This document shows, piece after piece, positions 43,730-58,131 of a DNA stretch of 64,000 bases. This DNA comes from a virus, in the IMG/VR virus record IMGVR_UViG_3300019776_000078, positions 3,384 through 67,383 of that record; one strand, given 5' to 3'. Position numbers and translations under genes: made by a program. A model generated the notes under the pieces. The model searched no databases. It saw nothing but the letters and a program-made list of their open reading frames with translations, and was not told the DNA's origin. Every line of letters begins with the position of its first letter. Within the stretch, counting starts at the first letter, position 1.

Positions 43730-44583
43730 TTCACTATGCTCCGTACAAATTCAATGGCGTTATCTAGACTTGGTGCTTCCCACAATAGCGGTCTATTGTA
43801 CATATCCTCATAAATCTCTTTGCTCTCATCAATAGCCTGAATGGTTGTGACGAACCAGTCCATGTCTTTAGTATTCATGTAGTTAAGATAAGCGCCCTCA
43901 TGGAAGTCGCAGTCCACAGATATAGTGCCGCTATAGATAGGTATAGTACCGCCCGCATAAGCGTCTAATAACTTCTCAGTTACATAGCCGTCATAGACCG
44001 AGTTCTCTGGGCATAAGCAGAACTTGTAATGCTTGAGAACATCAAACTTAGACTGACGCAAGGCACGGTTAAACATATTGCCATAGCCATGTAATTGTTT
44101 GTAACGGGAAATGGAGTTAAATAGATTGACTCTTAATCCCTCTGGGTTGCCAGCGATCATAGCGCAGAACTCTTTTTTCTCTTGCCAGTCTAACTTACGT
44201 TTCTGTGTTAGCGGTGCAATCGGAATCAACGGTTCATAGCCGTGGTTGTGCATATTCTCTTTGCGAGGACGCTGCTCAAAGCCGGGCCATGCTAGGCGAA
44301 AATACCATAAAGGAAGACGATGGTTTCTGCCACCATAACTGTCCCAATCAAAAGAAAGAGAATGACTGTAATTGATAAAGTTAGGACGTATATTTTCCCC
44401 GATAAAGGCAAGCGTTTTCGCAGGGTCGGTATGGACATTTCCAAATACTGAGGTAACAACAAGATCAGCCTCGTGTGGATTGCTAGTATAAGTGACGCCA
44501 TCGAAAGCAGTATTGAAAAAAAAGTCCAAAAAGTCACCATCAAATGCACCCTCCCAAAAGTTAACTACACAGATTGTTTTCAT
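43726..44583 (-). CDS. family 10 glycosyltransferase (alpha-1,3/4-fucosyltransferase-like)
   Basis: YKFCLCPENS..DGYVTEKL.DA..GGTIPIY.G signature; GEN.RPNF. Confidence 0.85.
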   Translation of the reverse strand: MKTICVVNFWEGAFDGDFLDFFFNTAFDGVTYTSNPHEADLVVTSVFGNVHTDPAKTLAFIGENIRPNFINYSHSLSFDWDSYGGRNHRLPLWYFRLAWPGFEQRPRKENMHNHGYEPLIPIAPLTQKRKLDWQEKKEFCAMIAGNPEGLRVNLFNSISRYKQLHGYGNMFNRALRQSKFDVLKHYKFCLCPENSVYDGYVTEKLLDAYAGGTIPIYSGTISVDCDFHEGAYLNYMNTKDMDWFVTTIQAIDESKEIYEDMYNRPLLWEAPSLDNAIEFVRSIVK

Positions 44584-45014
44584 CTTTTATTCCTCACGGC
44601 TTTAACCACATTGACTTGAGCCATTCTTGATCCTTGCTCTTTGTAGACCATCGTTTTAAACATCGCATGTTGTAACGCTTTACCACTTCTATACTTTGCT
44701 TTAATTGGATCTACTTGGTATTTCATTCCAGACTTATTGGCAACGCATAAGACATTTGCTTTATCCATCCAGTCTAACAACTCTACATGACGGTTCATGG
44801 GAAGATCCCATAACTTATCGCTTAATGGTTTCATGTAAGTGGCTACCCAAGCTCGCACAGCACCGAAACAATGTTCAGTTCTTTTAAGTCCTAGTTCGTA
44901 TGGCAAACATCCAAACTCTGAATGACACCAATCTTTTAACTTGTTGCATGAATCAAAGTTCTGCCATGAACGAATAATCATAGCGTCCCAAAATCGTTGG
45001 TCTGGTTTTCTCAT
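44580..45014 (-). CDS. hypothetical protein
   Basis: ORF in the leftward operon. Confidence 0.5.
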   Translation of the reverse strand: MRKPDQRFWDAMIIRSWQNFDSCNKLKDWCHSEFGCLPYELGLKRTEHCFGAVRAWVATYMKPLSDKLWDLPMNRHVELLDWMDKANVLCVANKSGMKYQVDPIKAKYRSGKALQHAMFKTMVYKEQGSRMAQVNVVKAVRNKR

Positions 45015-45155
45015 TAGAATGGCGCCTCCTCAAATGGCGGTAAATTTGGTTTAGGTTCTGGTATGTATTCCATAGTCCAGTTCGTATAAATTTCTATAAT
45101 CTTTTTAGCTTCCTCGTGTCTACGCACAAGTCGCATTGCTTCACCGTTCTCATCT

Positions 45156-45344
45156 TTAATGATGTACGGCATTCTCAATCTCACGTTCTGCCATCATAGC
45201 GTCCGCAATCTCATATGCTCTACGGGCTGCAACTTCTTCCCATGTTCTACCATCGGGCATATGCAGCTTCCAATCACCAGCACACATACCATTCATAATC
45301 TGTGCCGCAAAGTAATCGCGGAGTCTGCGTTCTCTATCTGTCAT
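45156..45344 (-). CDS. conserved small phage protein (LRDYFAA...AYEIADAM)
   Basis: Recognisable phage motif. Confidence 0.7.
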   Translation of the reverse strand: MTDRERRLRDYFAAQIMNGMCAGDWKLHMPDGRTWEEVAARRAYEIADAMMAEREIENAVHH

Positions 45345-45568
45345 TGCATCTCCTTGAGTTTCTCAATCTTGTCTTGAGCAAACACTACTTGGCAGTTTGT
45401 TAAAAACATTTCTTCTGACATGTGCATGTTGTTTGCAGCGATGACTGCCAATGCTAGGCAAGACACCATCACCTCTGCATAAGTAGGCTGTGCCTCAATA
45501 ATGACGGTCTCTATTTTGTGAGTTAATTCATATGCTTTTTTATCGTCGTACTCTAATGGTTTATTCAT
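45341..45568 (-). CDS. hypothetical protein, first gene of the leftward operon
   Basis: Strong AGAGGAGG RBS and upstream promoter. Confidence 0.6.
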   Translation of the reverse strand: MNKPLEYDDKKAYELTHKIETVIIEAQPTYAEVMVSCLALAVIAANNMHMSEEMFLTNCQVVFAQDKIEKLKEMQ

Positions 45569-45589
45569 ACTTCCTCCTCTTTTGTTTAG

Positions 45590-45618
45590 ACTATAATGAT
45601 TGATAACAAAATTGTAAA
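45590..45618 (-). promoter_or_regulatory. sigma70-type promoter for the leftward recombination/glycosylation operon
   Basis: Minus strand TTTACA-17 bp-TATAGT. Confidence 0.65.
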
Positions 45619-45647
45619 TAGGTTATACCTACTTTATTTCATCTATT

Positions 45648-46013
45648 ATGTCAGGACTTACCCTTACTCTTAACTATCCAGTCAGTGTGAATGCATATTG
45701 GCTGGCATCAGGTAAGCGCCGTTATATTTCTAAACGTGGTGTTGCTTTTAAGAAACACGTTGCAGAAATGTATGCACAATCAAATCACAAGGGATTTGGA
45801 GACAAACCAGTGGAGTTAAATGTGTTGTTGTTTCCTCGCGACAATCGCCTCATGGACATCGACAATATGCTCAAGTGCTTGGGAGATTCATTACAAGATG
45901 CGGGCGTGTTTGATGACGATCAACAGGTCTGGAAGATCACTATAGAGCGTGGCCAAAAGATTAAAGGTGGCGGATGCCAGGTAACTATTACCGAATACTT
46001 TCATGCGGCATGA
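45648..46013 (+). CDS. rusA: RusA-like Holliday junction resolvase
   Basis: PVSVNAYW...PRDNRLMDIDN..K...DSL..AGVFDDD.QV. Confidence 0.85.
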   Translation: MSGLTLTLNYPVSVNAYWLASGKRRYISKRGVAFKKHVAEMYAQSNHKGFGDKPVELNVLLFPRDNRLMDIDNMLKCLGDSLQDAGVFDDDQQVWKITIERGQKIKGGGCQVTITEYFHAA

Positions 46014-46095
46014 ATGCATGAAATTTCAATAAAAGATGCGTCTCATTCTCATTTAGTGGGTTCCTTTTAGTAACCTTTGGGAACCTTTTGGAACC

Positions 46096-46140
46096 AAATC
46101 AAGTGTCAACGTTGACAGTTGTTCTGGAAGTCATTGATTT
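46096..46140. repeat. palindromic site TGTCAACGTTGACA with conserved flanks (copy 1)
   Basis: 14-bp perfect palindrome at 46104-46117; 22-mer identical to 55881-55902. Confidence 0.8.
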
Positions 46141-46178
46141 ATATAGTTATTACACAGTGATGATTCTTGTATAATAAC

Positions 46179-46192
46179 TAGGGTTTACCCTA
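46179..46192. promoter_or_regulatory. palindrome TAGGGTTTACCCTA (recurrent operator-like motif)
   Basis: AGGGTWWACCCT core recurs at 26321, 32462, 41134 and 52821. Confidence 0.6.
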
Positions 46193-46229
46193 ATGTACAT
46201 TTATACAGTCCTATAAGGTACAATCGGTT

Positions 46230-46316
46230 CCAATACCTCAGCAGGTATTTTCATGTGTAATCCTCCTCTTTACACTTGGCCTTAGGGAGCGTGAGTACGT
46301 CCGCTCCCATCTTTTT
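46230..46316 (+). ncRNA. candidate three-hairpin sRNA with anti-Shine-Dalgarno loop
   Basis: AATACCT/AGGTATT; GTGTAA-TCCTCCTCT-TTACAC; GGGAGCG/CGCTCCC followed by T-run; TACAAT upstream. Confidence 0.55.
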
Positions 46317-46319
46317 GTG

Positions 46320-46340
46320 TATAATTGTTGCATTGCAACA
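46320..46340 (+). promoter_or_regulatory. -10 box TATAAT followed by palindrome TGTTGCA-T-TGCAACA (PhaR-like operator)
   Basis: Perfect 7-1-7 inverted repeat at 46326-46340. Confidence 0.6.
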
Positions 46341-46359
46341 TTATCTTAAGGAGATAACC

Positions 46360-46494
46360 ATGTTTGAATTTGATAAGCAGTACAAAGAATCAATGAAGAA
46401 GTTTGAAGAAGTAACCGAAGCAATCAAGCAAGCAAACGAGTTCTGGGTGAACGCCGTATTGTCTAGCTGGAAGTCTTTCTACAAGACTAAGTAA
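46360..46494 (+). CDS. 44-aa amphipathic helical (phasin-like?) protein
   Basis: AAGGAG RBS, own promoter and terminator; MFEFDKQYKESMKKFEEVTEAIKQANEFWVNAVLSSWKSFYKTK. Confidence 0.65.
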   Translation: MFEFDKQYKESMKKFEEVTEAIKQANEFWVNAVLSSWKSFYKTK

Positions 46495-46513
46495 TAAACG
46501 GCCTTAGGTCGCA

Positions 46514-46545
46514 GGGGTGAGCAGAAACTGCTTGCCCCTTTTTTT
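46514..46545 (+). terminator. rho-independent terminator
   Basis: GGGGTGAGCAG-AAA-CTGCTTGCCCC followed by T7. Confidence 0.85.
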
Positions 46546-46609
46546 ATTTGTGCTACACTAAAAACACAGAAGGTGACTTTGGTCGGTTACCTTGTGTATA
46601 ATTGCCACC

Positions 46610-46714
46610 AAAGCCCTGTACTACATGGGGTCTGAATAGTTTTCTTATGTTTGGTTGGTGGCCGTTAAACATAAGCGAATGACCAAAATCAGACTCTATG
46701 TTCTACAGGGTTTT
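46610..46714 (+). ncRNA. c4-like antisense RNA
   Basis: Nested stems AAAGCCCTGTA/TACAGGGTTTT, CATGGGGTCTGA/TCAGACTCTATG and CTTATGTTT/AAACATAAG; unpaired TTGGTGGC and GACCAA are complementary to upstream GCCACCAA and TTGGTC. Confidence 0.7.
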
Positions 46715-47054
46715 ACCTTTCTGTGTGGTCTATGTGCAGGGAGGGGAAACCGCCGATCATCATAGGCCGAGAGACCAAGGACGTCCAACAGGGTCAAGCG
46801 TGGGTGGTAGTAGATAGAGCGCGTTGGGGGGAATCGAAAGATTTATAAGTCTGTCTAATGTGGATGTCGCCGAAGTGAACTCAGAGTGATGCCACCCCAC
46901 GAACCTAGTTACGACTGGGTTGGGGGGTGCTGTGTCATCAACCGAGTGAATCTAGAGTGATACGAGTACTACTATATGAAGTGTGATACAAGCGGGTCTG
47001 ATGGGATACGAGTAAAAGCGGGGAAGTTGTAAATAAAATAAAGAGGAGAAGATA

Positions 47055-47381
47055 ATGAGGAATAGACACGCAGAACTAATTCATGCTTGGGCAGAAGGCG
47101 CCGAGATTGAGCGCAGAGAAACCTATTGTAGATATCAAATGAATCAAGAGCCAATCATTGTCAGCGAAGAGTGGTTGCCATGCCCTAATCCATCATGGGT
47201 ATGGAACGAGGAATATCGCATTAAACCATCTCCAGTTCCAGATTATGTAAGCTATCTTTGCTTAAATTATCCGCACAAAGACCAGTGGTTTGAGTCAACT
47301 AAACCGTATCAACACGATTGCATTAAGATCACTCGAAACTTTAAAACATGGAAAATAACATCAGTGGAGATTGTCGGATGA
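47055..47381 (+). CDS. conserved phage hypothetical protein
   Basis: HAELIHAWAEGAEIE...PSW....EYRIKP; strong RBS. Confidence 0.65.
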   Translation: MRNRHAELIHAWAEGAEIERRETYCRYQMNQEPIIVSEEWLPCPNPSWVWNEEYRIKPSPVPDYVSYLCLNYPHKDQWFESTKPYQHDCIKITRNFKTWKITSVEIVG

Positions 47382-47563
47382 ACTACAGAGAAGAGATAAA
47401 GAAACAAGTTGGGATAATCCCTGATTCAATCAAACGGGGTTCGGTGCAACAATCTATACGTTGGAAAGAACAAGCCATGCAGTCCCTAAGGGTAGCCAAT
47501 AACCCAAAAGCGGGCGAGTATGAATTGAAGTTAGCATTAAACGCATTAACCAAATACAAATAA
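47378..47563 (+). CDS. hypothetical protein
   Basis: ATGA overlap start (MNYREE). Confidence 0.5.
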   Translation: MNYREEIKKQVGIIPDSIKRGSVQQSIRWKEQAMQSLRVANNPKAGEYELKLALNALTKYK

Positions 47564-47572
47564 GAGGAAACC

Positions 47573-48394
47573 ATGAAACTTTCACAGATTACACTTGATC
47601 CTAAACTGATGATGCGTGTTGCGCTCAATGACGAGATCATTGACGAGTATGCACAAGCGATGTTGGACGGCGATAAATTTCCGCCCATCGTGATTTTCAA
47701 TGACGGCGATAACAACTACTTAGTTGAGGGATTCAAACGCTACTACGCCTACAAAAAGTGCGGCATAGAACTAGTGGATGCCGACACTCGCATGGGAACT
47801 TACGATGATGCATTTGATTATGCGTTGACCGTAGCAAACCGCTTACATGGAGAACGCTATACGCCCGAAGACAAGCGTTATCAATTGCAGATGGCGTTAG
47901 ATGTGCCGCGCTATGCTAACAAATCAGACCGCGAACTTGCCCGCATTCTTAAAGTCTCCAACACTTTCGTATCCAAGATGCGTAAAGCAGAAGGTAAACA
48001 ACCGAAGGTGATTGAGACCACCCGTAATGGTAAGACTGTTAAAGTAAAGAACAACAAACCTGAGATAGAAGATGAACCAGAACCAATCCTTGAACAAGAA
48101 GACAAGATCCACGAAATTGCCGTGGAAATGCAGGGCGTTATCGAGGAGAACGAAAAGTTACAGAATCGTTTGGCTGTGGCTGCGATGGAGGCTACGGATG
48201 AAGAGAAACAGTTGGCAAAAAGTCTTCTCGAAGATAAAGACGAGAAGATTAAACAACTCGAAGCGGATCTCCGTGTATACAAAGCGTCCAGTGATACATT
48301 CCAAGCTCAACTAGCAGAAGCCATCAAACAATGCAAGTATTGGGAACGCCGTGCCAAGAAAGCAGAAAATATGCTCAATAAACAAGCAGCGTAG
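47573..48394 (+). CDS. ParB/Srx-like N-terminal domain protein with HTH and coiled coil
   Basis: FPPIVIF...YLVEGFKRY.A; SDRELARILKVSNTFVSKMR HTH. Confidence 0.75.
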   Translation: MKLSQITLDPKLMMRVALNDEIIDEYAQAMLDGDKFPPIVIFNDGDNNYLVEGFKRYYAYKKCGIELVDADTRMGTYDDAFDYALTVANRLHGERYTPEDKRYQLQMALDVPRYANKSDRELARILKVSNTFVSKMRKAEGKQPKVIETTRNGKTVKVKNNKPEIEDEPEPILEQEDKIHEIAVEMQGVIEENEKLQNRLAVAAMEATDEEKQLAKSLLEDKDEKIKQLEADLRVYKASSDTFQAQLAEAIKQCKYWERRAKKAENMLNKQAA

Positions 48395-48441
48395 GGTTAA
48401 TCCTAGTGTTTGTAAAAGTAGTAAAAGAGTAAGATTTTCAC

Positions 48442-48550
48442 ATGGGGGGCGCAGTCGGCTCGGCGACTTAAAATAGCCTGTATCCTTTTGGTTTAGAAAA
48501 GTGCTTCACGTACACTTGCCCCCCATCCCCGATAGCAGGCGGTATCCTGC
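48442..48550 (+). ncRNA. candidate structured cis element upstream of the helicase
   Basis: ATGGGGGGC/GCCCCCCAT closing stem enclosing AGTCG/CGACT and CTTTT/AAAAG hairpins; then GCAGG/CCTGC hairpin. Confidence 0.45.
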
Positions 48551-48568
48551 ATAGTTACAGAGGATAAG

Positions 48569-50053
48569 ATGTTAGAGCTAAGGCCACATCAGGAAGAAGT
48601 TGTCGAGAAACTCAGAGAAGGTTTCAGGCAAGGACACAGATGCCAGTTGCTATATGCACCAACTGGATTCGGAAAAACAGAAGTAGCGATGGCGATTATG
48701 AAAGCCGTTGCACAGAAGTACAAGAAGTGTGCGATGGTGCTAGACCGTATCGTTTTAGTAGACCAAACCAGCCGCCGCTTAACTAAGTATGGGATCGAAC
48801 ATGGCGTCATGCAAGCAGGCCATTGGAGATACAGACCATTCGAGCATATCCAAGTCTGCTCTGCTCAAACCCTAGAACGCAGAGAAGTATTCCCTGAGAT
48901 TGATCTTCTCATCGTTGATGAGTGCCATATCACCCGCCGTGGTGTCGTTAAATTTATTAGGGAAAACCCTCAGATCAAAGTTATTGGTCTGACCGCTACT
49001 CCGTTTACCAAAGGGCTTGGAGATATTTACTCCCATGTAGTCGGTGCTACCCCTACTGGAGACCTAATTGATAAGGGCTGGCTAGTTCCACTCAAGATTT
49101 ATGTTGCCAAAGAGATTGACATGACGGGCGTTAAGAAGCGGGCTGGTGAGTGGGCGGCAGAAGATGTCCAAGAACGGGGTTTAAAGATCGTTGGAGACGT
49201 TGTTCGCAGTTGGCATGAGAAGACCCATGAAATCTTTGGAAAACCCGTCAAAACCATCGTATTCTGCGCTGGCGTTGAACACGGCAGAGCATTGGTAGAA
49301 CAGTTTGCTAAAGCAGGATACAACTTTGTCTCTATTTCCTATAAGGAAGACGATCAATATAAGAAGGACATGATCGAAGAGTTCAGCAAACCGGATACTG
49401 AGATTCATGGATTGATTGCGACTGACATCCTGACCCGTGGTTTTGATGTTACCGATGTGATGATTGGCGTATCAGCCCGTCCATTCTCCAAGTCATTCAG
49501 TTCCCATGTTCAGCAGATGGGGCGTGTCATGCGTACCCATGAAGGTAAAGAGTTCGGTGTTTGGTTAGATCATTCTGGAAACTTTCTGAGATTTAGAAAG
49601 GATTGGGATCGTGTTTTCTATGAGGGCGTATCTCAACTCAAAGAAGATTCGATTGAGAGAACCAAGAAAGAACCGACAGAAAAGGAAAAGAAAGAGTCCG
49701 TCTGTCCTGCCTGTAAGGTCTTATGGACTTTCCCTGACAATAAGTGCGGTGCTTGTGGCTACGTCAAGATCAGTAAAAAACACTTACAGATGGTCAATGG
49801 TGAGCTTCTGGAGCTGGCCGCAACCAATCAGCAATCGTTCAATCACAACAAGCATTTCTATTCTGAGTTGGTGTACTACGCCAGACAGAAGGGATTTAAG
49901 GATGGCTGGGCAAAGCACAAATACAAAGAGAAGTTCGGTGTCTTTCCTAAAGCCATTCCCGTAGAAGTTCGGCCTACTTCTGTTACCACTCTCAAGTGGA
50001 TCAAGAGTAGATTTATAGCGTATAACAAATCAAAAGTGAGACTAGCAGCATGA
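48569..50053 (+). CDS. superfamily 2 DNA helicase
   Basis: LRPHQ, APTGFGKT, DECH, GLTATP, LTRGFD, QMGRVMR; C-terminal Zn ribbon. Confidence 0.9.
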   Translation: MLELRPHQEEVVEKLREGFRQGHRCQLLYAPTGFGKTEVAMAIMKAVAQKYKKCAMVLDRIVLVDQTSRRLTKYGIEHGVMQAGHWRYRPFEHIQVCSAQTLERREVFPEIDLLIVDECHITRRGVVKFIRENPQIKVIGLTATPFTKGLGDIYSHVVGATPTGDLIDKGWLVPLKIYVAKEIDMTGVKKRAGEWAAEDVQERGLKIVGDVVRSWHEKTHEIFGKPVKTIVFCAGVEHGRALVEQFAKAGYNFVSISYKEDDQYKKDMIEEFSKPDTEIHGLIATDILTRGFDVTDVMIGVSARPFSKSFSSHVQQMGRVMRTHEGKEFGVWLDHSGNFLRFRKDWDRVFYEGVSQLKEDSIERTKKEPTEKEKKESVCPACKVLWTFPDNKCGACGYVKISKKHLQMVNGELLELAATNQQSFNHNKHFYSELVYYARQKGFKDGWAKHKYKEKFGVFPKAIPVEVRPTSVTTLKWIKSRFIAYNKSKVRLAA

Positions 50054-50226
50054 GAAATAGAGAACTAAATGAGTACTTCAATATGACCCAACAAGAGATC
50101 GGCGAGGCGATGGACTTAACCAGAGAGAATACTTCTGCGATTGAGAAGAGTGCGCTCAAGAAACTGAGAAAGCTGTTAGAAGAGAAGGGCTATAAAGCAT
50201 CGGACTTCATAGGTGGAATGGCATGA
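50050..50226 (+). CDS. sigma70 region-4-like HTH protein, 58 aa (absent from ORF track)
   Basis: Manually translated ...MTQQEIGEAMDLTRENTSAIEKSALKKLRK... Confidence 0.7.
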   Translation: MRNRELNEYFNMTQQEIGEAMDLTRENTSAIEKSALKKLRKLLEEKGYKASDFIGGMA

Positions 50227-51038
50227 GTTTTCAGTCATTTGCCGAGCAACATGGGCTAATCATCGATCATTTGGTCTATGACAAATGGACTAGGGTTCCT
50301 ACCCTAGACCATCCTAAGAAAAAGAATGGTTCTTATATCTATGATGGTAAGTCGGGCGCGGTTCTGAATTGGGCTGTGCATGAGAAAGCAATCGTATGGA
50401 AAGGAGAAGCAAAAAATGATCCCTTATACAGAGCTAAGGTACACAAAGCCAAGCAGGATACTGAGAAGCGCAATCAGGAGGCGGCATCCAAAGCTGGCTG
50501 GATTCTTAAGAAAGCGGTTAAATCTACTCATCTTTACTTAGCTAAGAAAGGTTTCCCTGATGAGCAAGCATTGGTCTGGGATGGGTTGTTGGTGATTCCG
50601 ATGCGGATCAACGAGGAGTTGGCTGGCCTCCAGCTGATCGATGCGGAGGGGAGTAAGAAGTTTCTATCCGGTCAAAAGAACAAGGGCGCAGTAGCAATCT
50701 TTGATAACAAGGGAGTCCCGATTCTGTGTGAAGGATACGCTACTGCCATGTCCATTAGACGGGCTTTAAAAGCCGTTAAAACACGCTACAAGATCATTGT
50801 TTGTTTTTCGGCTAGTAACCTTAAGCATTGTTCTCAAGAGCATCCTGACTGCATTATCGTTGCTGATAACGACAAGGTTGGTATCAGGGTAGCCAAGGAA
50901 TCAGGAAGGCCGTTCTTTGTGCCTCCTAATCACAAGGAAGATTTTAACGACTATGAGCTAAGAGTAGGTGCTGAAAAGGCGGGAAAAGCCCTCATTGGAG
51001 TCGGTCTGAAGCAGGCTGAACAAATACAGACTCAGTAA
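50223..51038 (+). CDS. primase-like Toprim protein
   Basis: YLAKKG, LVIPM, LQLID..G.KKFL.G, CEGYATA, IVADND, DFND. Confidence 0.8.
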   Translation: MSFQSFAEQHGLIIDHLVYDKWTRVPTLDHPKKKNGSYIYDGKSGAVLNWAVHEKAIVWKGEAKNDPLYRAKVHKAKQDTEKRNQEAASKAGWILKKAVKSTHLYLAKKGFPDEQALVWDGLLVIPMRINEELAGLQLIDAEGSKKFLSGQKNKGAVAIFDNKGVPILCEGYATAMSIRRALKAVKTRYKIIVCFSASNLKHCSQEHPDCIIVADNDKVGIRVAKESGRPFFVPPNHKEDFNDYELRVGAEKAGKALIGVGLKQAEQIQTQ

Positions 51039-51040
51039 CT

Positions 51041-51110
51041 AAAAAAACCCCATCAGTAGCAGAGAGTTCTCGCATAATTGAATCTGCTAGAACCAAAGAC
51101 TGAATGGGGT
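51041..51110 (-). terminator. complex stem-loop / terminator at the convergent junction
   Basis: ACCCCATCAGT...ACTGAATGGGGT outer stem, TAGCAGA/TCTGCTA inner stem; U7 tail on the minus strand. Confidence 0.55.
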
Positions 51111-51134
51111 CTCCGATACATTCAACGGATACTT

Positions 51135-51395
51135 CTACTTTGCCAGCTTTCTCGGCATCTCGGAGGTAAATGATAGTAGCGTTAATCTCGGTCTCCTTAA
51201 AGCCTGACCCTCAATAAGTTTCGGGAAGGCGGTCAATAGCGTCTCTCTGTTCGTATCATCAGCTAGTATTGCAGCTTCAGCCATTCTACCCCAAAACCCG
51301 CCCTGTTTAACCATTTTGTGCCAGTGTGGTAATAACTGATCTCTATTTACGCTAGGCATAATGCGACTGCCATGAGAGCAAATAGAAAAGCGCAT
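51135..51395 (-). CDS. hypothetical early protein (GGF..xxAxA...AD..N...L..AFP family)
   Basis: Recognisable small phage motif. Confidence 0.55.
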   Translation of the reverse strand: MRFSICSHGSRIMPSVNRDQLLPHWHKMVKQGGFWGRMAEAAILADDTNRETLLTAFPKLIEGQALRRPRLTLLSFTSEMPRKLAK

Positions 51396-51404
51396 ATCAC
51401 ATCA

Positions 51405-51611
51405 TCAGGCTTTAGATCGTGCATTTTTAACTCCTATTCCATGTGCGTGTTCAATCCGTCTCACGAAATCGATCAACGGGTTTGGCCTTGATTGGGTAGC
51501 AATATCAAAATAAATAGCCTCAATCTCCTTGATGGTAAGGGGAGCGGAATACTCCACCTTTTCCAGCTTGGCTAAGTTTTCAAAGAATTGCCTTTCGTTA
51601 CTCGTCATCAT
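51405..51611 (-). CDS. hypothetical early protein
   Basis: LT..EI...FVRRIEHAHGIG motif. Confidence 0.55.
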   Translation of the reverse strand: MMTSNERQFFENLAKLEKVEYSAPLTIKEIEAIYFDIATQSRPNPLIDFVRRIEHAHGIGVKNARSKA

Positions 51612-51780
51612 CTAACTCCGATTCAATGTCAGTAACCTCAGTATATTCTGACAAATCCCCGATGTCATTCTGAAATTCATCATAGGCTACCCCCTCCGCC
51701 TCCTCATAATCTGGAGCCATGACAAAGTAGGTTTTCGTCCCGCTAAAGTGCATCTTTACTGCATAACCTTTCATTCTCAT
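51598..51780 (-). CDS. small acidic early protein
   Basis: GGAGG RBS; V.A.DYEEA..A pattern. Confidence 0.55.
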   Translation of the reverse strand: MRMKGYAVKMHFSGTKTYFVMAPDYEEAEGVAYDEFQNDIGDLSEYTEVTDIESELDDDE

Positions 51781-51923
51781 ACATCCTCCTTGTGTTTCTT
51801 TGCGTTTATGTACCCCTCTACAAAAATTTCTCTGTCGTAATCACTTAGGGGAGTATTGTCCCCAAACTTAGATTGTTCCCACTCATAAAACGCTCTATTA
51901 GCCTCCGCAATTAAGTTGTTCAT
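51777..51923 (-). CDS. hypothetical early protein
   Basis: Probable start MNNLIAE. Confidence 0.45.
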   Translation of the reverse strand: MNNLIAEANRAFYEWEQSKFGDNTPLSDYDREIFVEGYINAKKHKEDV

Positions 51924-52147
51924 ACTTTCCCCTTTAGGTGTTGTGATGTCGTTGATGAATTGGTCGAATCCCCAAAGCCAATTTGTTTGCATAATTTATC
52001 CTCTTTCATTCGTGTGTAATAAAGGTTTTTTTCAATGACCGCTTTGTACTCAGGAGGACTAAGCCTGACCCTCTCTTCTAAAAATTTAATGCACTCTCGA
52101 ACATTTACGAGAGACCTAATCTTTTCCTTGCGTTCTATATTATTCAT
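51920..52147 (-). CDS. hypothetical early protein
   Basis: GGAG RBS; operon packing. Confidence 0.45.
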   Translation of the reverse strand: MNNIERKEKIRSLVNVRECIKFLEERVRLSPPEYKAVIEKNLYYTRMKEDKLCKQIGFGDSTNSSTTSQHLKGKV

Positions 52148-52371
52148 ACGATCTCCACAATTCTATAATCGTTGCGATCTTCTGGACTTTCAATATTGCC
52201 CTCCTCGTACTCCCACTGCATTTCTTCCAAAAAATCATCTAAAGCGTTTTTAGCGTACTCAAAAGTGCTAAAAGTCTCTGGTACTCTTTCGTCAGTATCG
52301 CCCTCCCAGCAAGTCCAAGTGTTAATCCAGCCATCACATAAAGTGAAGTGTTGTATTTCAAATTTAGACAT
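52144..52371 (-). CDS. acidic early protein (TLCDGWINTW family)
   Basis: GAGGAG RBS before MSKFE. Confidence 0.6.
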   Translation of the reverse strand: MSKFEIQHFTLCDGWINTWTCWEGDTDERVPETFSTFEYAKNALDDFLEEMQWEYEEGNIESPEDRNDYRIVEIV

Positions 52372-52558
52372 TTTCAATCTCCTCAATTTCATGGGTATCT
52401 TCTTCTCCGTAAACTACTCGGCTATCAACATAATCCCCTTTAGCAAACTTCTTATATGCGTTCTTTTCTGCATCGTATTCGCTTTTGGCGGTTACTTCTA
52501 CATCGTAAACAGTGGTTTCATTACGAGCAATCCTGACAATATATTTATTCATCATCAT
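52364..52558 (-). CDS. small acidic early protein
   Basis: VEVTAKSEYDAE pattern similar to 51598..51780. Confidence 0.55.
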   Translation of the reverse strand: MMMNKYIVRIARNETTVYDVEVTAKSEYDAEKNAYKKFAKGDYVDSRVVYGEEDTHEIEEIENV

Positions 52559-52835
52559 TCTCCAATACGGTAATTAGTTTCTCGGCTTGTTCTTCGGTAT
52601 CGCACCGCTTAATTAAGTCATCACCATTAACATGGGAAAATAAAACTTCCCATTTGCCATTTCGTTCAACTGCTATATACATCGCCATTTCACTTCTCCT
52701 CTTAATAAGCCTGACCCTCAATAGCTTTCTGCTACGAGAAATACAAGCGGTTTAACAAATAGCCTCCTGCTGCTTGATACATACTTCAAAAAATCATCAC
52801 TCAAGTGATGAGTAAAACATAGGGTAAACCCTATC

Positions 52836-52864
52836 CTCAAGCCCTCAAGTCTAAGGGCTTTGAG
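52836..52864. terminator. hairpin, possible terminator/processing site
   Basis: AAGCCCT-N8-AGGGCTT with CTCA/TGAG extension, just after the stop of 52872..53180. Confidence 0.4.
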
Positions 52865-52871
52865 ATAGTGT

Positions 52872-53180
52872 CTATCCCTCAATTGCGTTGTGTTTCATTA
52901 AAGCAATTTTCTGCGCTGGTTGTAATGGGTAATCAAATTCTGCGGGGTCGTACTCTTGAGCCATAATCTGCCCGTATTGATAGCCTATTTGCTCTAGGTG
53001 TTCCCCTAGGGTTCCATCTAAAGCCCATCTATAAGCCTTAGAATAGAATAGGTTTATGGCCTGTTCCTTTGTATATCCAGCACGAATAAACCCGTTAATA
53101 AGTGCATTTCCTACAATGTAGGCGGGGCGCTCGTATGAGTAAGCGTCTTCTAAAATGCCCTGTCCTGTGAAATCTTCCAT
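52872..53180 (-). CDS. hypothetical early protein
   Basis: 102-aa ORF with RBS. Confidence 0.55.
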   Translation of the reverse strand: MEDFTGQGILEDAYSYERPAYIVGNALINGFIRAGYTKEQAINLFYSKAYRWALDGTLGEHLEQIGYQYGQIMAQEYDPAEFDYPLQPAQKIALMKHNAIEG

Positions 53181-53608
53181 TATTTCAATCCCTTATTAAA
53201 GTTTTGCAAATACTCCATGATCGGTAAAACTTGGTATTTCTTAAGGTTTACGGCTTGCGCTACTTGCTCGCTAAATGTTTCTAATACGGCTACCTGATCG
53301 GCTCGCCTAACGATTACCCATGAAGTCATTTAAGCCCCCTATAAATTGCTATAAATTCGGCTACTTGTTGGGCGGTCAATATGCCCTTAGCGTAAGCCCT
53401 TGTGAGCGTGTAATGCGTCCATTGGTGGTTAGTCATGCTGGAATCCTCCTATCGTTAATAGCGCGCTTAATCCGTTGCTTAATCTCGCGCATGGTATAAT
53501 CGTAAAAAGTAACCCCGAAGCGGTCAGAATCCCCGCTACAAGTAGCACTTATTGACCCGTTAGGGTTGCGGTTAAACATGATGTAGTAATCCTTGAACCA
53601 AAAGTTTT

Positions 53609-53806
53609 TCATGCTCTCTGCTCCTGATTGCCTAATAAGATATTTACAAGGTCGGTAGTGGATTTATAAGCAAGTATCTGCAAGTGCGGATCAGTAAGCC
53701 CGCTCATAAAATCGTCTGCGTCCTGTTCAGTATTGAACGCCCTTATAAGGTCTTTATGCGTCCAAGAGTTGTAGCCCCGCGCTATGTATAGTTTTCTCAT
53801 GTTCAT
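53609..53806 (-). CDS. hypothetical early protein
   Basis: Probable start MNMRK after AAGGGG. Confidence 0.45.
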   Translation of the reverse strand: MNMRKLYIARGYNSWTHKDLIRAFNTEQDADDFMSGLTDPHLQILAYKSTTDLVNILLGNQEQRA

Positions 53807-53810
53807 CCCC

Positions 53811-54146
53811 TTAAAACTGTTGGAATAGAAATACACCCTCGGACGGTTCCCCGATAAGCAAGGTGTGATCGTTTAGATAATTCATTACTGCCTCTTTTAC
53901 TTCTTCTTCTGTTGGCTCTTCACTGTCGCACTCAATGGGATAGCAGTTGAAAATATCTCCGACTTCCATTTCTGAATAATCGCAACATAACGCGATAACA
54001 TCCAGTTCGACCTGTTCGCCCGTATCTTCTTCGTACTGCTCGAGCCAGTCAAAAAGCATAGTTAAGGCCTCATAAGAAAACTGGTTCCCTCTGTCCATGC
54101 TTTGAAATGCGTTTCTAAAGTCATAGTAATTAACGGTCTGTATCAT
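53811..54146 (-). CDS. highly acidic conserved early protein
   Basis: FSYEAL..LFDWLE...ELDVIALCCDYSE; AAAGAGGAG RBS. Confidence 0.65.
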   Translation of the reverse strand: MIQTVNYYDFRNAFQSMDRGNQFSYEALTMLFDWLEQYEEDTGEQVELDVIALCCDYSEMEVGDIFNCYPIECDSEEPTEEEVKEAVMNYLNDHTLLIGEPSEGVFLFQQF

Positions 54147-54185
54147 GGTATTTCTCCTCTTTGGTTGTGAAATTGGCTCGGCTGC

Positions 54186-54449
54186 CTAAGCGTTTTCTGC
54201 TGCGGGGTGTTGCAATTTATAAGTAAGATCTGCCAATCCATTCATGCAATCCTTACAGTCGCATGGCATTACTTCGATTTTGGAAGCCCGCTTTAATTCC
54301 TGCATGGTGTCAAATCCTTTGGTATGGCATAGATCATCTGTAAACCTAAAGCCATAAGGCAAATTGAGAATGTAACTTCCCATGCCTTCTCCATCTTCTG
54401 GACATCCATCTACATCTACATCCCGCTTAATATCCAGCTTATATCGCAT
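54186..54449 (-). CDS. hypothetical early protein with CxCxxC
   Basis: AAGGAGG RBS; PCDCKDC. Confidence 0.6.
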   Translation of the reverse strand: MRYKLDIKRDVDVDGCPEDGEGMGSYILNLPYGFRFTDDLCHTKGFDTMQELKRASKIEVMPCDCKDCMNGLADLTYKLQHPAAENA

Positions 54450-54466
54450 AAAATCCTCCTTTAATT

Positions 54467-54517
54467 GATCTCATCAGTTAGCGCATAACGCTAAGACGGG
54501 ACAAGCCCGTTTCGATC
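54467..54517 (-). ncRNA. type II hammerhead ribozyme
   Basis: Minus strand GAUC-GAAA-CGGG-cuugu-CCCG-UC-UUAGCG-uuaug-CGCUAA-CUGAUGA-GAUC: complete catalytic core, three stems and a GUC cleavage triplet. Confidence 0.9.
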
Positions 54518-54519
54518 TT

Positions 54520-54780
54520 TTAGCCCTCAAATACGGGGCTATTGTCATAATTCATATTGGATAAGACTTCATCAAGGCCGCTATAACCTAGTGCCTTAGC
54601 CTCTAGGTCTGCCGCTTGTGCAAGGGTTAAACCCTCGGCATTGTGGAAAGTGTCAGGGACAGAACCAAAAAATTCCATATAGAATGATTCAAGCTGTTCA
54701 GCTGGTAATTCCATTGTTGCCAATACTAAGCAAGGGTTAGCAACATGGGAAAGCAAGTTTTTAATGATCTCTTTTTGCAT
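54520..54780 (-). CDS. hypothetical protein, first early gene
   Basis: AAGGA RBS; downstream of a predicted promoter. Confidence 0.55.
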   Translation of the reverse strand: MQKEIIKNLLSHVANPCLVLATMELPAEQLESFYMEFFGSVPDTFHNAEGLTLAQAADLEAKALGYSGLDEVLSNMNYDNSPVFEG

Positions 54781-54827
54781 GATAGATTCCTTTATTTATA
54801 AGGGTTTGCTGGTTGTTTACTTATTAC

Positions 54828-54876
54828 TAATGTATTGCATGATTGATACATTAACACAATATATTTAAGAGTGCAA
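54828..54876 (-). promoter_or_regulatory. early promoter with overlapping inverted repeat
   Basis: Minus strand TTGCAC-17 bp-TAATGT with TG extension; TAATGTAT-N10-ATACATTA at 54828-54853. Confidence 0.55.
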
Positions 54877-55089
54877 TTAACCTACTAATCTGTTGGGTTA
54901 TTGTTTCGGCTGCGCTCCCAGTTTCTGCTGCACAAAGTCGCTAGGCTGCCGACATCCGACCATAAAAGCCCGCTATGTCTTCGCTACTGGAGCAGCTTAT
55001 TAACTCTTTCCGTAGGGAATAAGAGAGAGCATAGAACCCTTACTTGTGATCTAAGTATTAGTCAGATATAAAGCATAGGATTAAAAGCA

Positions 55090-55120
55090 CTGTGGATTTA
55101 TACAGTAGTTGTGTTATAGT
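55090..55120 (+). promoter_or_regulatory. LexA (SOS) box and extended -10 upstream of terS
   Basis: CTGT-GGATTTAT-ACAG at 55090-55105; TGtTATAGT at 55112-55120. Confidence 0.65.
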
Positions 55121-55157
55121 TCAGTCATTCCTAACCTATACCCAATAGTTATTACTT

Positions 55158-56006
55158 ATGCGCCTATCTAAGATTACTAGAAAGCAAGTCGATCAGGTCT
55201 TAAAAGAGAACCCCATACATGAGGTGCTCAATGTCGCTAAAACCGCGCTTACTCCTAAGCAGCTTAAGTACTGTGAGAATGTAGCTAAGGGAGATAGTAA
55301 AGCAGGAGCATATAGGAAGGCATATAACAGTAAGGCAAAGCCAGATACGCAAGCCAATGAGGGTTATAAGCTATCCAAACGCCCCGACATCGACACGATG
55401 ACAGAGGCTATTAGGAAGGGATTAGAGTGGGAGAAATCGTATTCTCTTGCTCAAACAAGAGCACTCGTGGTCGAAAGACTGACAAAAGAGGCTTTGGATG
55501 AGGATTCTTCCCCTTCTGCTCGCATCAATGCACTCAAGGCACTCGGCACAGTTGCGGGAGTAGATGCATTCGTGCATAGGACTGAGACTACAGTAATAAA
55601 AGACAGTAGCAAGATCAGGGATGAACTACTTACTCAGCTTAAGCAAGCGATGGAGTCGAGCACCATTGATCTAGATGCTGATGAACAGGCTCTATTAGCG
55701 GAGATCAACCCTACCGCCAATGAGATTGAGGATAGCGGAGACCCACCCGAGGGCGACCACCCCTTTTCTGAAAAAGATGGGACTCAAATACTACATAGTA
55801 CTCCAGACAAAAGATCACAAAATAATACTAAAAATTATAATGACTCCGAAAATCCCCAACAAAATCATGGAGTTCCAGAACAAGTGTCAACGTTGACAGT
55901 TGATTTGCATTCCAAAGAGGGGGGTAGGGGTGTAAAAAATGATGCCAAATGGGAAGAAAGTGGTACAGGAAAGACCCACGTCAGTGGTTTTAAAACAAAG
56001 GGGTAG
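55158..56006 (+). CDS. terS: terminase small subunit with long C-terminal extension
   Basis: LTPKQ..YC...G.S...AYRKAY; ARINALKALG; upstream of terL. Confidence 0.7.
   Translation: MRLSKITRKQVDQVLKENPIHEVLNVAKTALTPKQLKYCENVAKGDSKAGAYRKAYNSKAKPDTQANEGYKLSKRPDIDTMTEAIRKGLEWEKSYSLAQTRALVVERLTKEALDEDSSPSARINALKALGTVAGVDAFVHRTETTVIKDSSKIRDELLTQLKQAMESSTIDLDADEQALLAEINPTANEIEDSGDPPEGDHPFSEKDGTQILHSTPDKRSQNNTKNYNDSENPQQNHGVPEQVSTLTVDLHSKEGGRGVKNDAKWEESGTGKTHVSGFKTKG
55862..55906. repeat. palindromic site TGTCAACGTTGACA with conserved flanks (copy 2)
   Basis: Near-inverted copy of 46096-46140. Confidence 0.8.
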
Positions 56007-56022
56007 GGGGGTATATATTTTT

Positions 56023-56247
56023 ATGAAACGAGTTTGGCAACCTTTAATTCCTATTAGATGGAAGACTATGCCTGATGGTACAAAAGTACTGCAACAGGCT
56101 TGGGGCGAACATGTTCAATCTAGCGATGATGGTAGATGGCATCAAACCTATGAGTTTCGCTGGGAAGATGTTCCTACAGATATAGAAGACAGGAAGTATT
56201 GGTCTAAAGAAGATGTAGATGGCGCTGATAAGGAGTGTGGAAAATGA
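56023..56247 (+). CDS. hypothetical protein
   Basis: Probable start MKRVW; KVLQQAW...WEDVPT motif. Confidence 0.5.
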   Translation: MKRVWQPLIPIRWKTMPDGTKVLQQAWGEHVQSSDDGRWHQTYEFRWEDVPTDIEDRKYWSKEDVDGADKECGK

Positions 56248-56423
56248 ATAGTGTTTGGGTAATTACGTGGAAGTACAACGATAACAGCAGTAGCGGCGTA
56301 CTGCCGGAATGTTACGAAAATTACAATCCTGCTTACTGGTTATGCGAGCAACTAAATGCACAAGGCTACGATAAATCTTTTTATGTGGTCGAATTAAAGA
56401 TTGTTAAGGGCGATTTACAGTGA
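56244..56423 (+). CDS. hypothetical protein
   Basis: Operon packing. Confidence 0.45.
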   Translation: MNSVWVITWKYNDNSSSGVLPECYENYNPAYWLCEQLNAQGYDKSFYVVELKIVKGDLQ

Positions 56424-56647
56424 CTGAGAAGCAGGCTCATATCTATATGATCATAGATACCTATTGGAAGACCTACGGCTTTGCCCCTTCCATTGATGAC
56501 ATTATGAAATTAACGGGCGATAAAGGGCGAGGGAACGTACACCGGACGATGAAGAAGCTCGTAGAACTAGGACACTGCAAGATGGTGCCAAGACACGCCA
56601 GAAGTATACGGCCCTCGTATATACGGGTTCATAAGCTAGAGCTATGA
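56420..56647 (+). CDS. LexA DNA-binding-domain-like protein
   Basis: TEKQ..IY..I.......GFAPS..DI....G.......H.....L...G......R.ARSI; no peptidase domain. Confidence 0.75.
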   Translation: MTEKQAHIYMIIDTYWKTYGFAPSIDDIMKLTGDKGRGNVHRTMKKLVELGHCKMVPRHARSIRPSYIRVHKLEL

Positions 56648-58131
56648 ATATCGAGAAAATCATCTCCAAGCTCCCAGAAGAAAAGCAAGAAGCTTTTTAT
56701 TTCAAGGTGCAGCAATATACGGACTCCTTACAGAGGGAAAAGTCTCAAAACAACTTTATGTCTTTTGTCCATACTATGTGGCCCGGATTTATTAACGGCG
56801 CCCACCATAAGATTATGGCAAAAAAATTTCAGGAGATAGCCGATGGAAAATGTAAGCGTCTTATTATTAATATGCCTCCCCGTCATACTAAGTCTGAGTT
56901 CGCTAGTTATATGCTACCAGCTTGGTTTCTTGGAAAGTTCCCTGATAAGAAGATTATTCAATGTTCTAACACTGCTGAACTGGCCGTTGGATTTGGACGA
57001 AAAGTCAGGAACCTTGTAGGATCCGATGCCTATCATAGGGTCTTTCCGGAAGTCGGACTTAAAGCAGACTCCAAAGCGGCAGGACGCTGGGACACCAACA
57101 AAGGGGGTACTTACTTCGCTATCGGTGTAGGAGGTACTGTAACGGGTAAAGGTGCGGATCTACTGATTATTGACGATCCCCATTCAGAACAAGAAGCGGC
57201 AATCGCTGCCAGTAATCCTGAAGTTTATGATAAGGTTTTTGAGTGGTACTCATCAGGTCCTCGCCAGCGTTTACAACCAGGCGGTGCGATTGTGGTCGTA
57301 ATGACCCGTTGGAGCCAAAAAGACCTGACTGGCCGGATACTCAAGTCCAGTATTGAGCGAGACGGAGATGAATGGGAAGTCATTAACTTTCCTGCAATAT
57401 TACCGTCCGAAAAACCCTTATGGCCAGACTTTTGGCCACTAAAAGAACTCTTAGCTTTAAAGGAAGAACTTCCTGTCGGCAAGTGGAATGCCCAGTATCA
57501 GCAGTCTCCTACCTCAGAAGAAGGCGCTTTAGTCAAACGAGACTGGTGGAAGTTGTGGGAAGGTGACCGCGCCCCACCCTGCGAATTTATTATCCAATCA
57601 TGGGATACGGCATTTACTAAAAATGAGCGGAGCGACTACTCTGCTTGCACGACTTGGGGCGTCTTTTACAAGGATGAAAATGAAAGAGACCCAAATATTA
57701 TTCTCTTGGATGCTTTTAAAGAGCGTCTCGAATTTCCAGAGTTGAAAGAGACTGCCTATCGGATGTATAAAGAATGGGAACCAGACGCATTTATTGTGGA
57801 AGCAAAAGCGGCTGGAAGTCCGTTAATCTTTGAATTGAGAAGAATGGGGATACCCGTATCAGAGTTTACACCTACTCGTGGGAATGATAAGATAGCTCGA
57901 CTAAATTCCGTAACCGATTTGTTCGCATCTGGCAAGGTGTGGGCGCCGGGTACTAGATGGGCTGATGAAGTGATTGAACAGATGGCATCATTTCCGAACT
58001 CGGATCACGACGACTTAGTGGACTCCTCCACTCAGGCATTGATTCGTTTCCGAAAAGGCGGCTTTGTTTCCCTACCGTCAGATGATGATGAAGACCAACA
58101 ATTTTATAGACGCAAAGCTGCGTATTACTAG
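56644..58131 (+). CDS. terL: terminase large subunit
   Basis: INMPPRHTKS, IIDDP, MTRW, QSWDTA, VEAKAAG, HDDLVDS. Confidence 0.95.
   Translation: MNIEKIISKLPEEKQEAFYFKVQQYTDSLQREKSQNNFMSFVHTMWPGFINGAHHKIMAKKFQEIADGKCKRLIINMPPRHTKSEFASYMLPAWFLGKFPDKKIIQCSNTAELAVGFGRKVRNLVGSDAYHRVFPEVGLKADSKAAGRWDTNKGGTYFAIGVGGTVTGKGADLLIIDDPHSEQEAAIAASNPEVYDKVFEWYSSGPRQRLQPGGAIVVVMTRWSQKDLTGRILKSSIERDGDEWEVINFPAILPSEKPLWPDFWPLKELLALKEELPVGKWNAQYQQSPTSEEGALVKRDWWKLWEGDRAPPCEFIIQSWDTAFTKNERSDYSACTTWGVFYKDENERDPNIILLDAFKERLEFPELKETAYRMYKEWEPDAFIVEAKAAGSPLIFELRRMGIPVSEFTPTRGNDKIARLNSVTDLFASGKVWAPGTRWADEVIEQMASFPNSDHDDLVDSSTQALIRFRKGGFVSLPSDDDEDQQFYRRKAAYY

Follow-up and report, generated by a model that had tools for sequence, protein, structure and literature searches.

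The 11-kb stretch at positions 45590-56647 of a 64,000-nucleotide (nt) DNA sequence, hereafter the window (bases 3384-67383 of the 67,383-bp IMG/VR virus record IMGVR_UViG_3300019776_000078), forms the core for control and replication in a tailed freshwater phage whose genome is complete and has no integrase. Between the genes for the small and large terminase subunits (terS and terL) it encodes a protein of 75 amino acids (aa) which, as judged from sequence and from a predicted structure, is a homologue of gp6 of the tectivirus GIL01, consisting of a LexA DNA-binding domain without the S24 domain. A LexA-type box overlaps the promoter-like site of terS, and a similar box precedes a conserved small RNA (sRNA1) with anti-Shine-Dalgarno loops. 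These elements suggest an early/late switch gated by the LexA family and complemented by an sRNA acting as translation brake, a mechanism to which we give an even chance of being correct.

The record carries a 99-bp direct terminal repeat at both ends and, for this reason, is regarded as a complete genome. Six-frame searches of the complete record at E<=1 yielded no match to the tyrosine recombinase (PF00589), serine recombinase (PF00239), S24 peptidase (PF00717) or HTH_3 (PF01381) families, which were detected in 14, 13, 12 and 14 of 14 control genomes, respectively. These searches included the first 3.4 kb of the record, which lie outside the window and hold seven open reading frames (ORFs), judged from their translations only as capsid-like or structural-looking. 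The absence of an integrase or CI-type repressor, which an earlier note made from the letters of the window had reported for a near-complete genome, now extends to the whole record, including the part which that note had not seen. ParA (PF13614, AAA_31) was also absent from the whole genome at E<=1. A greedy call returned 113 ORFs of at least 40 aa; 70 window ORFs were scanned against PHROGs and 30, partly the same set, against Pfam, and among the 70 there was no ParA-like family, no recognised plasmid initiator and no anti-repressor homologue. Relatives were collected from IMG/VR and Joint Genome Institute (JGI) metagenomes by means of a ParB-like protein and two conserved patterns, after which the region was aligned; genome records of five relatives were used (G001-G003 among them), two of them at least 90% complete, and PF00589 was found in none of the five. 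The named phages closest in TerL are 023Pt_psg01 and the Pelagibacter phages HTVC027P and HTVC023P, at 52-60% identity. A family-A DNA polymerase, a core gene in relatives of the HTVC023P type, is absent from the whole genome; for this reason the packaging and structural genes appear to have a different kinship from the replication module, and replication probably leans on the host.

The gene for the 75-aa protein (56420-56647, plus strand), here called mini-LexA, encodes a winged helix-turn-helix (HTH) DNA-binding domain only. It had been overlooked in the earlier note, though its stop coincides with the last position (56647) of the stretch there described. In a search of the PDB with the profile of its family, the best matches were LexA structures (3k2z at 2e-3). 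An AlphaFold (AF2) model, with a predicted local distance difference test (pLDDT) value of 86.7, features three helices and a two-strand wing, and the top 6 Foldseek matches of this model are all LexA (E. coli LexA-DNA complexes), with a template modelling (TM) score of 0.77-0.78 and a root-mean-square deviation of 1.8 Å over 66 columns. Aligned by hhalign with GIL01 ORF6 (gp6), the profile matches over the full length (probability 94.5%, E 7.7e-8, 63 columns, 25% identity), and in a tblastn search with gp6 the mini-LexA gene is the best match in the genome (E 0.006). The family comprises at least 172 metagenomic clusters, many of which carry PF01726 (LexA_DNA_bind) or a LexA name given by JGI, and 31 of 31 family members share R37, N39 and R42 in the recognition helix. 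The gene is found beside terL in three of the five relatives' records, at 62-78% identity, both of the most complete records included, and a palindromic site lies upstream of it.

The sequence CTGT-N8-ACAG is the consensus of the LexA (SOS) box of beta- and gammaproteobacteria. A perfect copy at 55090-55105 is located 9 nt before a -10-like TATAGT (55115-55120) and about 50 nt before terS. A second site (ATGT-N8-ACAG, 46193-46208), matching at 15 of 16 positions and kept in the closest relative here (L020), stands 10 nt before the -10-like hexamer TACAAT of sRNA1 (46219-46224), so that the spacing between box and hexamer is matched at the two places, and both boxes overlap the -35 zone of the promoter-like sites, that of sRNA1 and the late one of terS. 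The order of terS box, gap of 9-10 nt and -10-like hexamer recurs in all four genomes for which the region is available (the window, G001, G002 and G003), with tandem boxes in G003; moreover, G002 and G003 have a perfect box at the place which matches that of the sRNA1 box. Across the five relatives' records, perfect boxes number 10, compared with 1 occurrence of a reversed control pattern. The terS site is a canonical-looking LexA-type box of the beta/gammaproteobacterial consensus, which may not be that of the host, overlapping a promoter-like site.

Two further sites have the form GTGT-N8-ACAG (46103-46118 and 55884-55899) and contain the 14-bp perfect palindrome TGTCAACGTTGACA, of which these are the only two exact copies in the window. 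Each belongs to a 56-nt unit, copy 1 at 46085-46140 with the palindrome at 46104-46117 and copy 2 at 55862-55917 with the palindrome at 55885-55898, and the two units form an inverted repeat with 84% identity. At the place of copy 1, relatives have a palindrome with symmetric changes, and in G001 the mini-LexA gene is preceded, at a distance of about 65 nt, by the second copy. The SOS boxes announced in the earlier note are therefore borne out by one perfect site, one nearly perfect site and these two palindromes, with their position conserved in relatives. Copy 2 falls in the 3' part of the terS ORF (55158-56006, plus strand; PHROG 51, E 6e-7 over residues 26-162), and right after it two G-rich direct repeats (55914-55934 and 55993-56013, 81% alike) flank the end of that ORF; these repeats may be part of a packaging signal.

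The gap of about 1 kb that separates rusA (45648-46013) from the next gene of some size (47055) is a non-coding hub, with three successive units kept in six to seven uncultured relatives, namely an sRNA, a 44-aa ORF and a hairpin of about 105 nt with a U-tract. Each unit has a promoter-like site and a terminator, and the alignment revealed conservation of both the -10-like hexamers and the terminators with their T-runs. The hub is preceded by a 40-nt non-coding block (46015-46054, plus strand), which is near-invariant in the aligned relatives and from which an exact 20-mer was found in 4 IMG/VR contigs. The first unit, sRNA1 (46230-46316, plus strand, about 85 nt), is composed of hairpin 1 (46232-46249), hairpin 2 with the loop UCCUCCUC (46251-46279) and a terminator hairpin (46285-46308) followed by a U-run. 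Its minimum free energy corresponds to a z of -4.59, and the three-hairpin fold was recovered in 7 of 7 homologues folded independently (z -3.9 to -5.5), with a distant eighth form (L012/L015) featuring two hairpins. The stems vary among relatives, with compensatory changes at 5 of 14 pairs overall and at 2 of 5 pairs of hairpin 2, and the CU-rich apical loops retain UCCUC, an anti-Shine-Dalgarno motif. A small ORF on the minus strand was considered as the cause of the CU-rich stretch and ruled out, because in L005 the start codon of that frame directly precedes a stop. On this sequence evidence, sRNA1 is a well-supported and new phage sRNA, and the anti-Shine-Dalgarno sRNA of the earlier note finds its confirmation in it. 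It may act as a trans- or cis-acting translation brake. In a duplex scan against 113 translation-start regions the top score was that of 45341-45568, the first gene of the leftward operon (-26.6 kcal/mol), and the adjacent 44-aa ORF gave a poor duplex (-13.5 kcal/mol).

The second unit starts with a -10-like TATAAT (P2) and the palindrome TGTTGCATTGCAACA at the transcript start (46320-46340, plus strand), conserved in the aligned relatives; the palindrome is a candidate operator or 5' hairpin of the messenger RNA. The 44-aa ORF, p44 (46360-46494, plus strand), has a Shine-Dalgarno sequence and a reading frame kept in relatives, and found no match in PHROGs. It is followed by an intrinsic terminator, T2 (46513-46549, plus strand), with a 12-pair stem and a T-run, and a search with its exact pattern found 7 stretches in IMG/VR and 4 in metagenomes. 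The third unit (46597-46725, plus strand), delineated by promoter scan and alignment, has its -10 hexamer at 46597-46602 (P3, promoter-like site 46573-46602) and the long hairpin at 46610-46714, followed by the U-tract. In an alignment of seven sequences, 6 of its 30 pairs show a compensatory change, and invariant G-U pairs fit the plus strand only. The long hairpin heads an operon of p108, p71, the ParB-like protein, a helicase and a primase, and may be an RNA in its own right or an attenuator in the leader of these replication genes.

The ParB-family protein mentioned above (47573-48394, plus strand, 273 aa) is composed of an N-terminal ParB/Srx-like domain, an HTH and a coiled coil. Its identification in the earlier note is upheld by PHROG 1033 (E 5e-14) and by Spo0J (1vz0, E 1e-3) as best match in the PDB; the N-terminal halves of plasmid ParB-N proteins are 34-40% identical to it, with 0 of 23 records covering at least 80%, and the Pfam ParBc family was not reached at E<=0.01. 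In the Spo0J alignment, the GERR motif (the CTP-binding arginine patch) corresponds to GFKR, with one R kept, E replaced by F and R by K. A second 14-bp palindrome, TAGGGTWWACCCTA, is over-represented genome-wide, with 5 sites against 0.04 expected at up to one mismatch and 12 against 0.56-0.70 at up to two mismatches. The twelve sites are at window positions 18661, 26320, 27435, 32461, 32749, 39484, 41133, 46179, 48392, 48958, 52820 and 62644; among the five best, those at 18661, 46179 and 48392 lie between ORFs or at ORF ends and those at 39484 and 52820 inside predicted ORFs. The hub site (46179-46192) reads TAGGGTTTACCCTA and is a candidate binding site of the ParB-like or another protein, and the hub of six relatives' loci contains TAGGGTWWACCCTA at up to one mismatch. 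From its sequence, this palindrome is a fair candidate for the site of the ParB-like protein.

The mechanism proposed here has a precedent in GIL01. According to the published account (PMC6182141), GIL01 is a temperate tectivirus without an integrase or a dedicated repressor, governed by host LexA, which together with gp7 represses the early promoter and the late one, the latter with tandem LexA boxes; late transcription is activated by gp6, a truncated LexA homologue that attaches to a palindrome over the -35. In the present phage the boxes would likewise be occupied by a protein of the LexA family; candidates are the uncleavable mini-LexA, host LexA (in a beta- or gammaproteobacterial host) and, as in GIL01, the two in succession. 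Occupied boxes would keep the late genes and sRNA1 off. The activation of RecA, following damage or the appearance of replication or recombination intermediates of the phage, would lift host LexA, and mini-LexA could then set a second tier as an activator or re-repressor. The UCCUC loops of sRNA1 would pair with Shine-Dalgarno regions and brake the translation of targets, with 45341-45568 as best candidate, and the long hairpin would attenuate read-through into the replication genes.

Several observations weigh against this proposed mechanism. The score of mini-LexA against PF01726 is borderline (23.8 bits for a cut-off of 23.7, and 23.1 in the six-frame search), and the assignment is carried by the family, the profile, the structure and the alignment with gp6. 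No gp7 homologue was found in the genome by tblastn with gp7, and the mini-LexA gene lies in the late region, while gp6 is an early gene. The count of perfect boxes in the window is weak (3 against 0.92 expected, a number reached in 2 of 100 shuffles), two of the three are inside ORFs, and at up to one mismatch there is no enrichment (16 against 25.4 expected). Support for the boxes comes from their positional conservation in relatives. The Gram-positive type of LexA box, GAAC-N4-GTTC, had 0 matches, and GGTTCC-N5-GGAACC repeats were at or below chance. A profile search of genome contigs found relatives of mini-LexA in six contigs of metagenome-assembled genomes (MAGs), three binned as Microbacteriaceae/Rhodoluna, two as Burkholderiales and one as Saccharimonadales, so that the bins conflict as to the host; CTGT-N8-ACAG is not known as the LexA motif of an actinobacterial host. 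The top duplex of sRNA1 is no outlier (mean -15.9, standard deviation 4.5, runner-up -26.4 kcal/mol). Finally, a simple promoter scan listed 16 sites against 24.8 in shuffles, and only P3 among the three hub sites P1-P3.

Three other identifications in the earlier note did not withstand the searches. At gathering score there were 0 Rfam matches in the whole window. Neither the c4-like RNA nor the hammerhead ribozyme had an Rfam match at E<=10 in 45000-57200 or 46010-47060, and a pattern of the hammerhead core occurs once, inside an ORF at 51219-51262, with 0.63 expected and at least one occurrence in 45 of 100 shuffles, i.e. at chance level. The consensus of the PhaR box is CTGC-N3-GCAG, of which there are 0 copies in 45590-56647 and 1 in the window (58747) against 1.28 expected.

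These results bear on the reading put forward in the earlier note, in which an episomal or pseudolysogenic phage senses damage through LexA and carbon status through PhaR, takes its decision by means of the c4-like RNA, the anti-Shine-Dalgarno sRNA and the hammerhead, and is maintained by ParB. In this form it is unlikely. Sensing of host damage through LexA keeps its ground in the terS box, the gp6-like protein and the precedent of GIL01, and the small-RNA layer is represented by one sRNA and one hairpin RNA; the carbon branch through PhaR and the c4 and hammerhead elements find no support. The freedom from an integrase also stands, in a complete genome without CI and in five relatives' records without a tyrosine integrase, and an episomal state would be in line with the conserved boxes at the late promoter-like site, the truncated LexA, the ParB-family protein with its enriched 14-bp palindromes and a replication that probably depends on the host, with GIL01 as working precedent for an integrase-free lysogeny maintained by LexA. 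Against such a state, no ParA and no plasmid initiator were recognised, relatives were seen neither as prophage nor as isolate plasmid, only as short MAG contigs, and four homing or HNH endonuclease genes are present in the structural module. The TerL relatives in culture also lack an integrase, and their description is that of lytic phages (bioRxiv 10.1101/2019.12.14.876532). A narrower version would be a tailed-phage counterpart of GIL01, namely an SOS-gated integrase-free episome with host LexA as sole maintenance repressor on the late and sRNA promoters, mini-LexA as second tier, and an orphan ParB on the genome-wide palindromes keeping or silencing the episome; we hold it only tentatively and place it on the unlikely side. 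A strictly lytic phage, in which mini-LexA alone uses the palindromes as operators, for autoregulation and early/late timing, and the likeness to SOS boxes is inherited from LexA ancestry without any host signal, is a real if doubtful possibility. The second palindrome of G001 is placed before the mini-LexA gene as an autoregulatory site would be, the three recognition-helix residues are invariant, the spacer of the hub palindrome is N8 or N9, a variation in length which host LexA should not tolerate, and the cultured TerL relatives, described as lytic, and the many homing endonucleases agree with it. On the other side, the terS boxes of the four genomes fit the outer CTGT and ACAG positions with AT-rich spacers, so that a proteobacterial host LexA is expected to bind them as well, and binding of the palindrome by a 75-aa domain without the LexA dimerisation domain is putative.

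It is also conceivable, if improbable, that the palindromes are not transcriptional and represent parS-type loading sites of the ParB-like protein or pac signals near terS. In form, a perfect palindrome of 14 bp centred on CG, as found here, resembles parS; the two TGTCAACGTTGACA copies bracket the replication and early region, and the second palindrome is widespread in the genome. Several phages have their pac site within the 3' part of terS, where copy 2 is situated with its flanking G-rich repeats. However, in L004, L005, L016 and L018 the hub palindrome is 5-6 nt from the -10-like hexamer, which is the position of an operator, two inverted pac sites would be odd, and the ParB-like protein has a degenerate GERR motif and lacks a ParA partner. 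As to the LexA-gated switch, LexA could just as well be the timer of a lytic phage, lifted by the phage's replication and recombination intermediates, and the mechanism would fit either lifestyle. A non-integrating dormant or carrier state is favoured by the parallel with GIL01 and its LexA boxes at the late promoter-like site, by the presence of a ParB-family protein and by the absent phage polymerase. Overall, lytic timing takes about half of our confidence and dormancy or a carrier state a distinctly smaller though appreciable share; the small remainder is left to cases such as non-transcriptional sites or some other lifestyle.

Downstream of the long hairpin, the window has a specific segment of about 330 nt (46726-47054, plus strand) in the place where relatives carry the Rfam motif RF02932 (Betaproteobacteria-1 RNA). 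This motif was found at 70-93 bits in six of seven relatives' loci (L016:5339-5463, L010:5569-5693, L015:3640-3760, L018:5299-5423, L004:2554-2681 and L005:5407-5531), in the leader of the replication operon, where it separates the long hairpin from p71 and the adjoining ParB-like gene, and is there extended by a conserved 3' domain of about 70 nt beyond the Rfam model (51 pairs, 16 of them compensatory). Neither the window nor L020 has a match at gathering score, and a covariance model built from the six relatives' RNAs with the 3' extension found nothing in the window (best 6.5 bits). The window and L020 diverge here, with unrelated sequence in this slot and, in the window, an extra ORF. In L004 an HNH endonuclease ORF (approximately 2150-2550) takes the place of the long hairpin, between T2 and the RF02932 RNA, which suggests a homing-type turnover of the slot. 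Among 151 genomes of the order Burkholderiales there was one RF02932 match (L034:19810-19932, i.e. G129:C1:2769809-2769931), located on a chromosomal island of low GC content and accompanied by large ATPase- and kinase-like genes and, at a distance of about 10 kb, an integrase gene; the island has no protein in common with this phage, and the match has no bearing on its lifestyle. A term search of the main text of PMC5737381, the supplements of which may describe its context, found no discussion of the Betaproteobacteria-1 motif. The phage relatives thus give this orphan Rfam motif a genomic home.

The remaining genes of the stretch are organised around the hub. A divergent promoter-like region with back-to-back hexamers (45569-45647) separates the leftward operon (first gene 45341-45568) from rusA, on the plus strand, which encodes a RusA-type Holliday junction resolvase (PF05866, E 1.2e-13; PHROG 34, E 5e-31). 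The operon headed by the long hairpin, also on the plus strand, comprises the two small ORFs p108 (47055-47381) and p71 (47348-47563), the latter kept beside the ParB-like gene in relatives, and, after the ParB-like gene, a superfamily 2 helicase (48569-50053) and a Toprim primase (50223-51038), both assigned by Pfam/PHROG. Between helicase and primase, a 58-aa ORF (50050-50226) has a match to sigma-factor PHROGs at their region-4-like end (E 1.6e-7) and may be a small transcription regulator. A leftward, early-gene-like block of about 15 small ORFs follows (51135-54780, minus strand), in which scans against PHROG and Pfam found no function-bearing family, only weak matches to PHROGs of unknown function and one Pfam match at E 0.037. 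The large terminase gene (56644-58131, plus strand; PHROG 38, E 6e-110) lies just beyond the stretch.

In the rest of the genome, a long rightward structural module comprises terS, terL, portal, capsid-like and tail-fibre genes, interspersed with four endonuclease genes (1867-2526, 2941-3450, 8582-9217 and 11709-12419), three of the endonuclease VII/HNH type and one for a homing endonuclease. Three adjacent paralogous ORFs of 360, 362 and 483 aa (12419-17006) all belong to PHROG 2295, of unknown function, and a 320-aa ORF without match sits between the second and the third. A leftward block holds a recombination set (exonuclease, Sak-like annealing protein and a protein like single-stranded DNA-binding proteins) and sugar-modifying enzymes. 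The latter form a cluster (39035-44583, minus strand) with a GT10 fucosyltransferase-like protein, a PIG-L deacetylase, an FkbM methyltransferase, a radical SAM/SPASM protein, a GT2 glycosyltransferase and a PHROG 1574 protein with a weak match to a glycosyltransferase PHROG (E 2e-4), and may serve the modification of the cell surface or of DNA. The region had 0 DNA matches among 50,697 GenBank phage records in near and distant search modes. None of the 11 listed sequencing runs is an RNA run. In four of them, which come from a single study and may be the source, at least half of the sampled words were found. Aligned to 45000-57000, the contigs of the matching runs are identical to the window, with no inversion between the two 56-nt units, and three joints at which they skip sequence, with sides of 29-42 nt and 90% likeness, resemble related phages sharing short conserved pieces.

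Comparison with known systems sets these elements in context. Like ParB, Spo0J, KorB and Noc, the ParB-like protein has an N-terminal ParB/Srx-like domain followed by an HTH, and candidate 14-bp palindromic sites; it differs from them in the lack of ParA, in GFKR for GERR, in a C-terminal coiled-coil half without match and in not reaching ParBc. With the sRNAs of the RsaE/RoxS type and NmsR of Neisseria, sRNA1 shares two hairpins with pyrimidine-rich apical loops and an ensuing intrinsic terminator, and a weak Rfam match to NmsRb spans exactly 46233-46314 (17.2 bits, E 7.6), far under the gathering score of that family (52 bits); unlike NmsRb, sRNA1 is phage-borne. In the immI region of P1 and P7, the former a non-integrating phage, the antisense RNA c4 controls icd-ant and is a short structured RNA with loops able to mask ribosome-binding sites. 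sRNA1 is likewise a short structured RNA in a phage regulatory region whose loops could mask such sites. However, it has its own promoter-like site and terminator, whereas c4 is processed from the transcript of its target; in addition, there is no match to the Rfam c4 model at E<=10, no anti-repressor homologue among the 70 ORFs scanned with PHROGs and no good pairing with the adjacent 44-aa ORF. The best-scoring candidate target of sRNA1, though no outlier, is a gene on the opposite strand.

The closest parallel is GIL01. Both phages lack an integrase and a CI-type repressor, both have LexA boxes in the late promoter (in tandem in GIL01 and in the relative G003) and a palindromic site near the -35 zone, and both encode a LexA protein of about 66-75 aa reduced to the DNA-binding domain and homologous over its full length. 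The differences are considerable, as the present genome is that of a 67-kb tailed phage with terminase and portal, and GIL01 is a 15-kb protein-primed tectivirus; its box is of the Bacillus type and not the proteobacterial CTGT-N8-ACAG, gp7 has no homologue here, gp6 is encoded in the early operon and mini-LexA beside the terminase genes, an sRNA under a box is found only here, and a temperate life, established for GIL01, is only a possibility for this phage. To the GIL01 scheme the region adds a new sRNA of phage origin, which has loops of the anti-Shine-Dalgarno kind and a LexA-type box at its promoter-like site. The maintenance of integrase-free lysogeny by LexA, with a truncated LexA homologue, has so far been a speciality of tectiviruses. 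If the parallel is true, the absence of an integrase would not make a phage virulent in virome surveys, and the GIL01 paradigm would be widened to a clade of abundant uncultured freshwater tailed phages with LexA boxes at the late promoter and a gp6-like protein.

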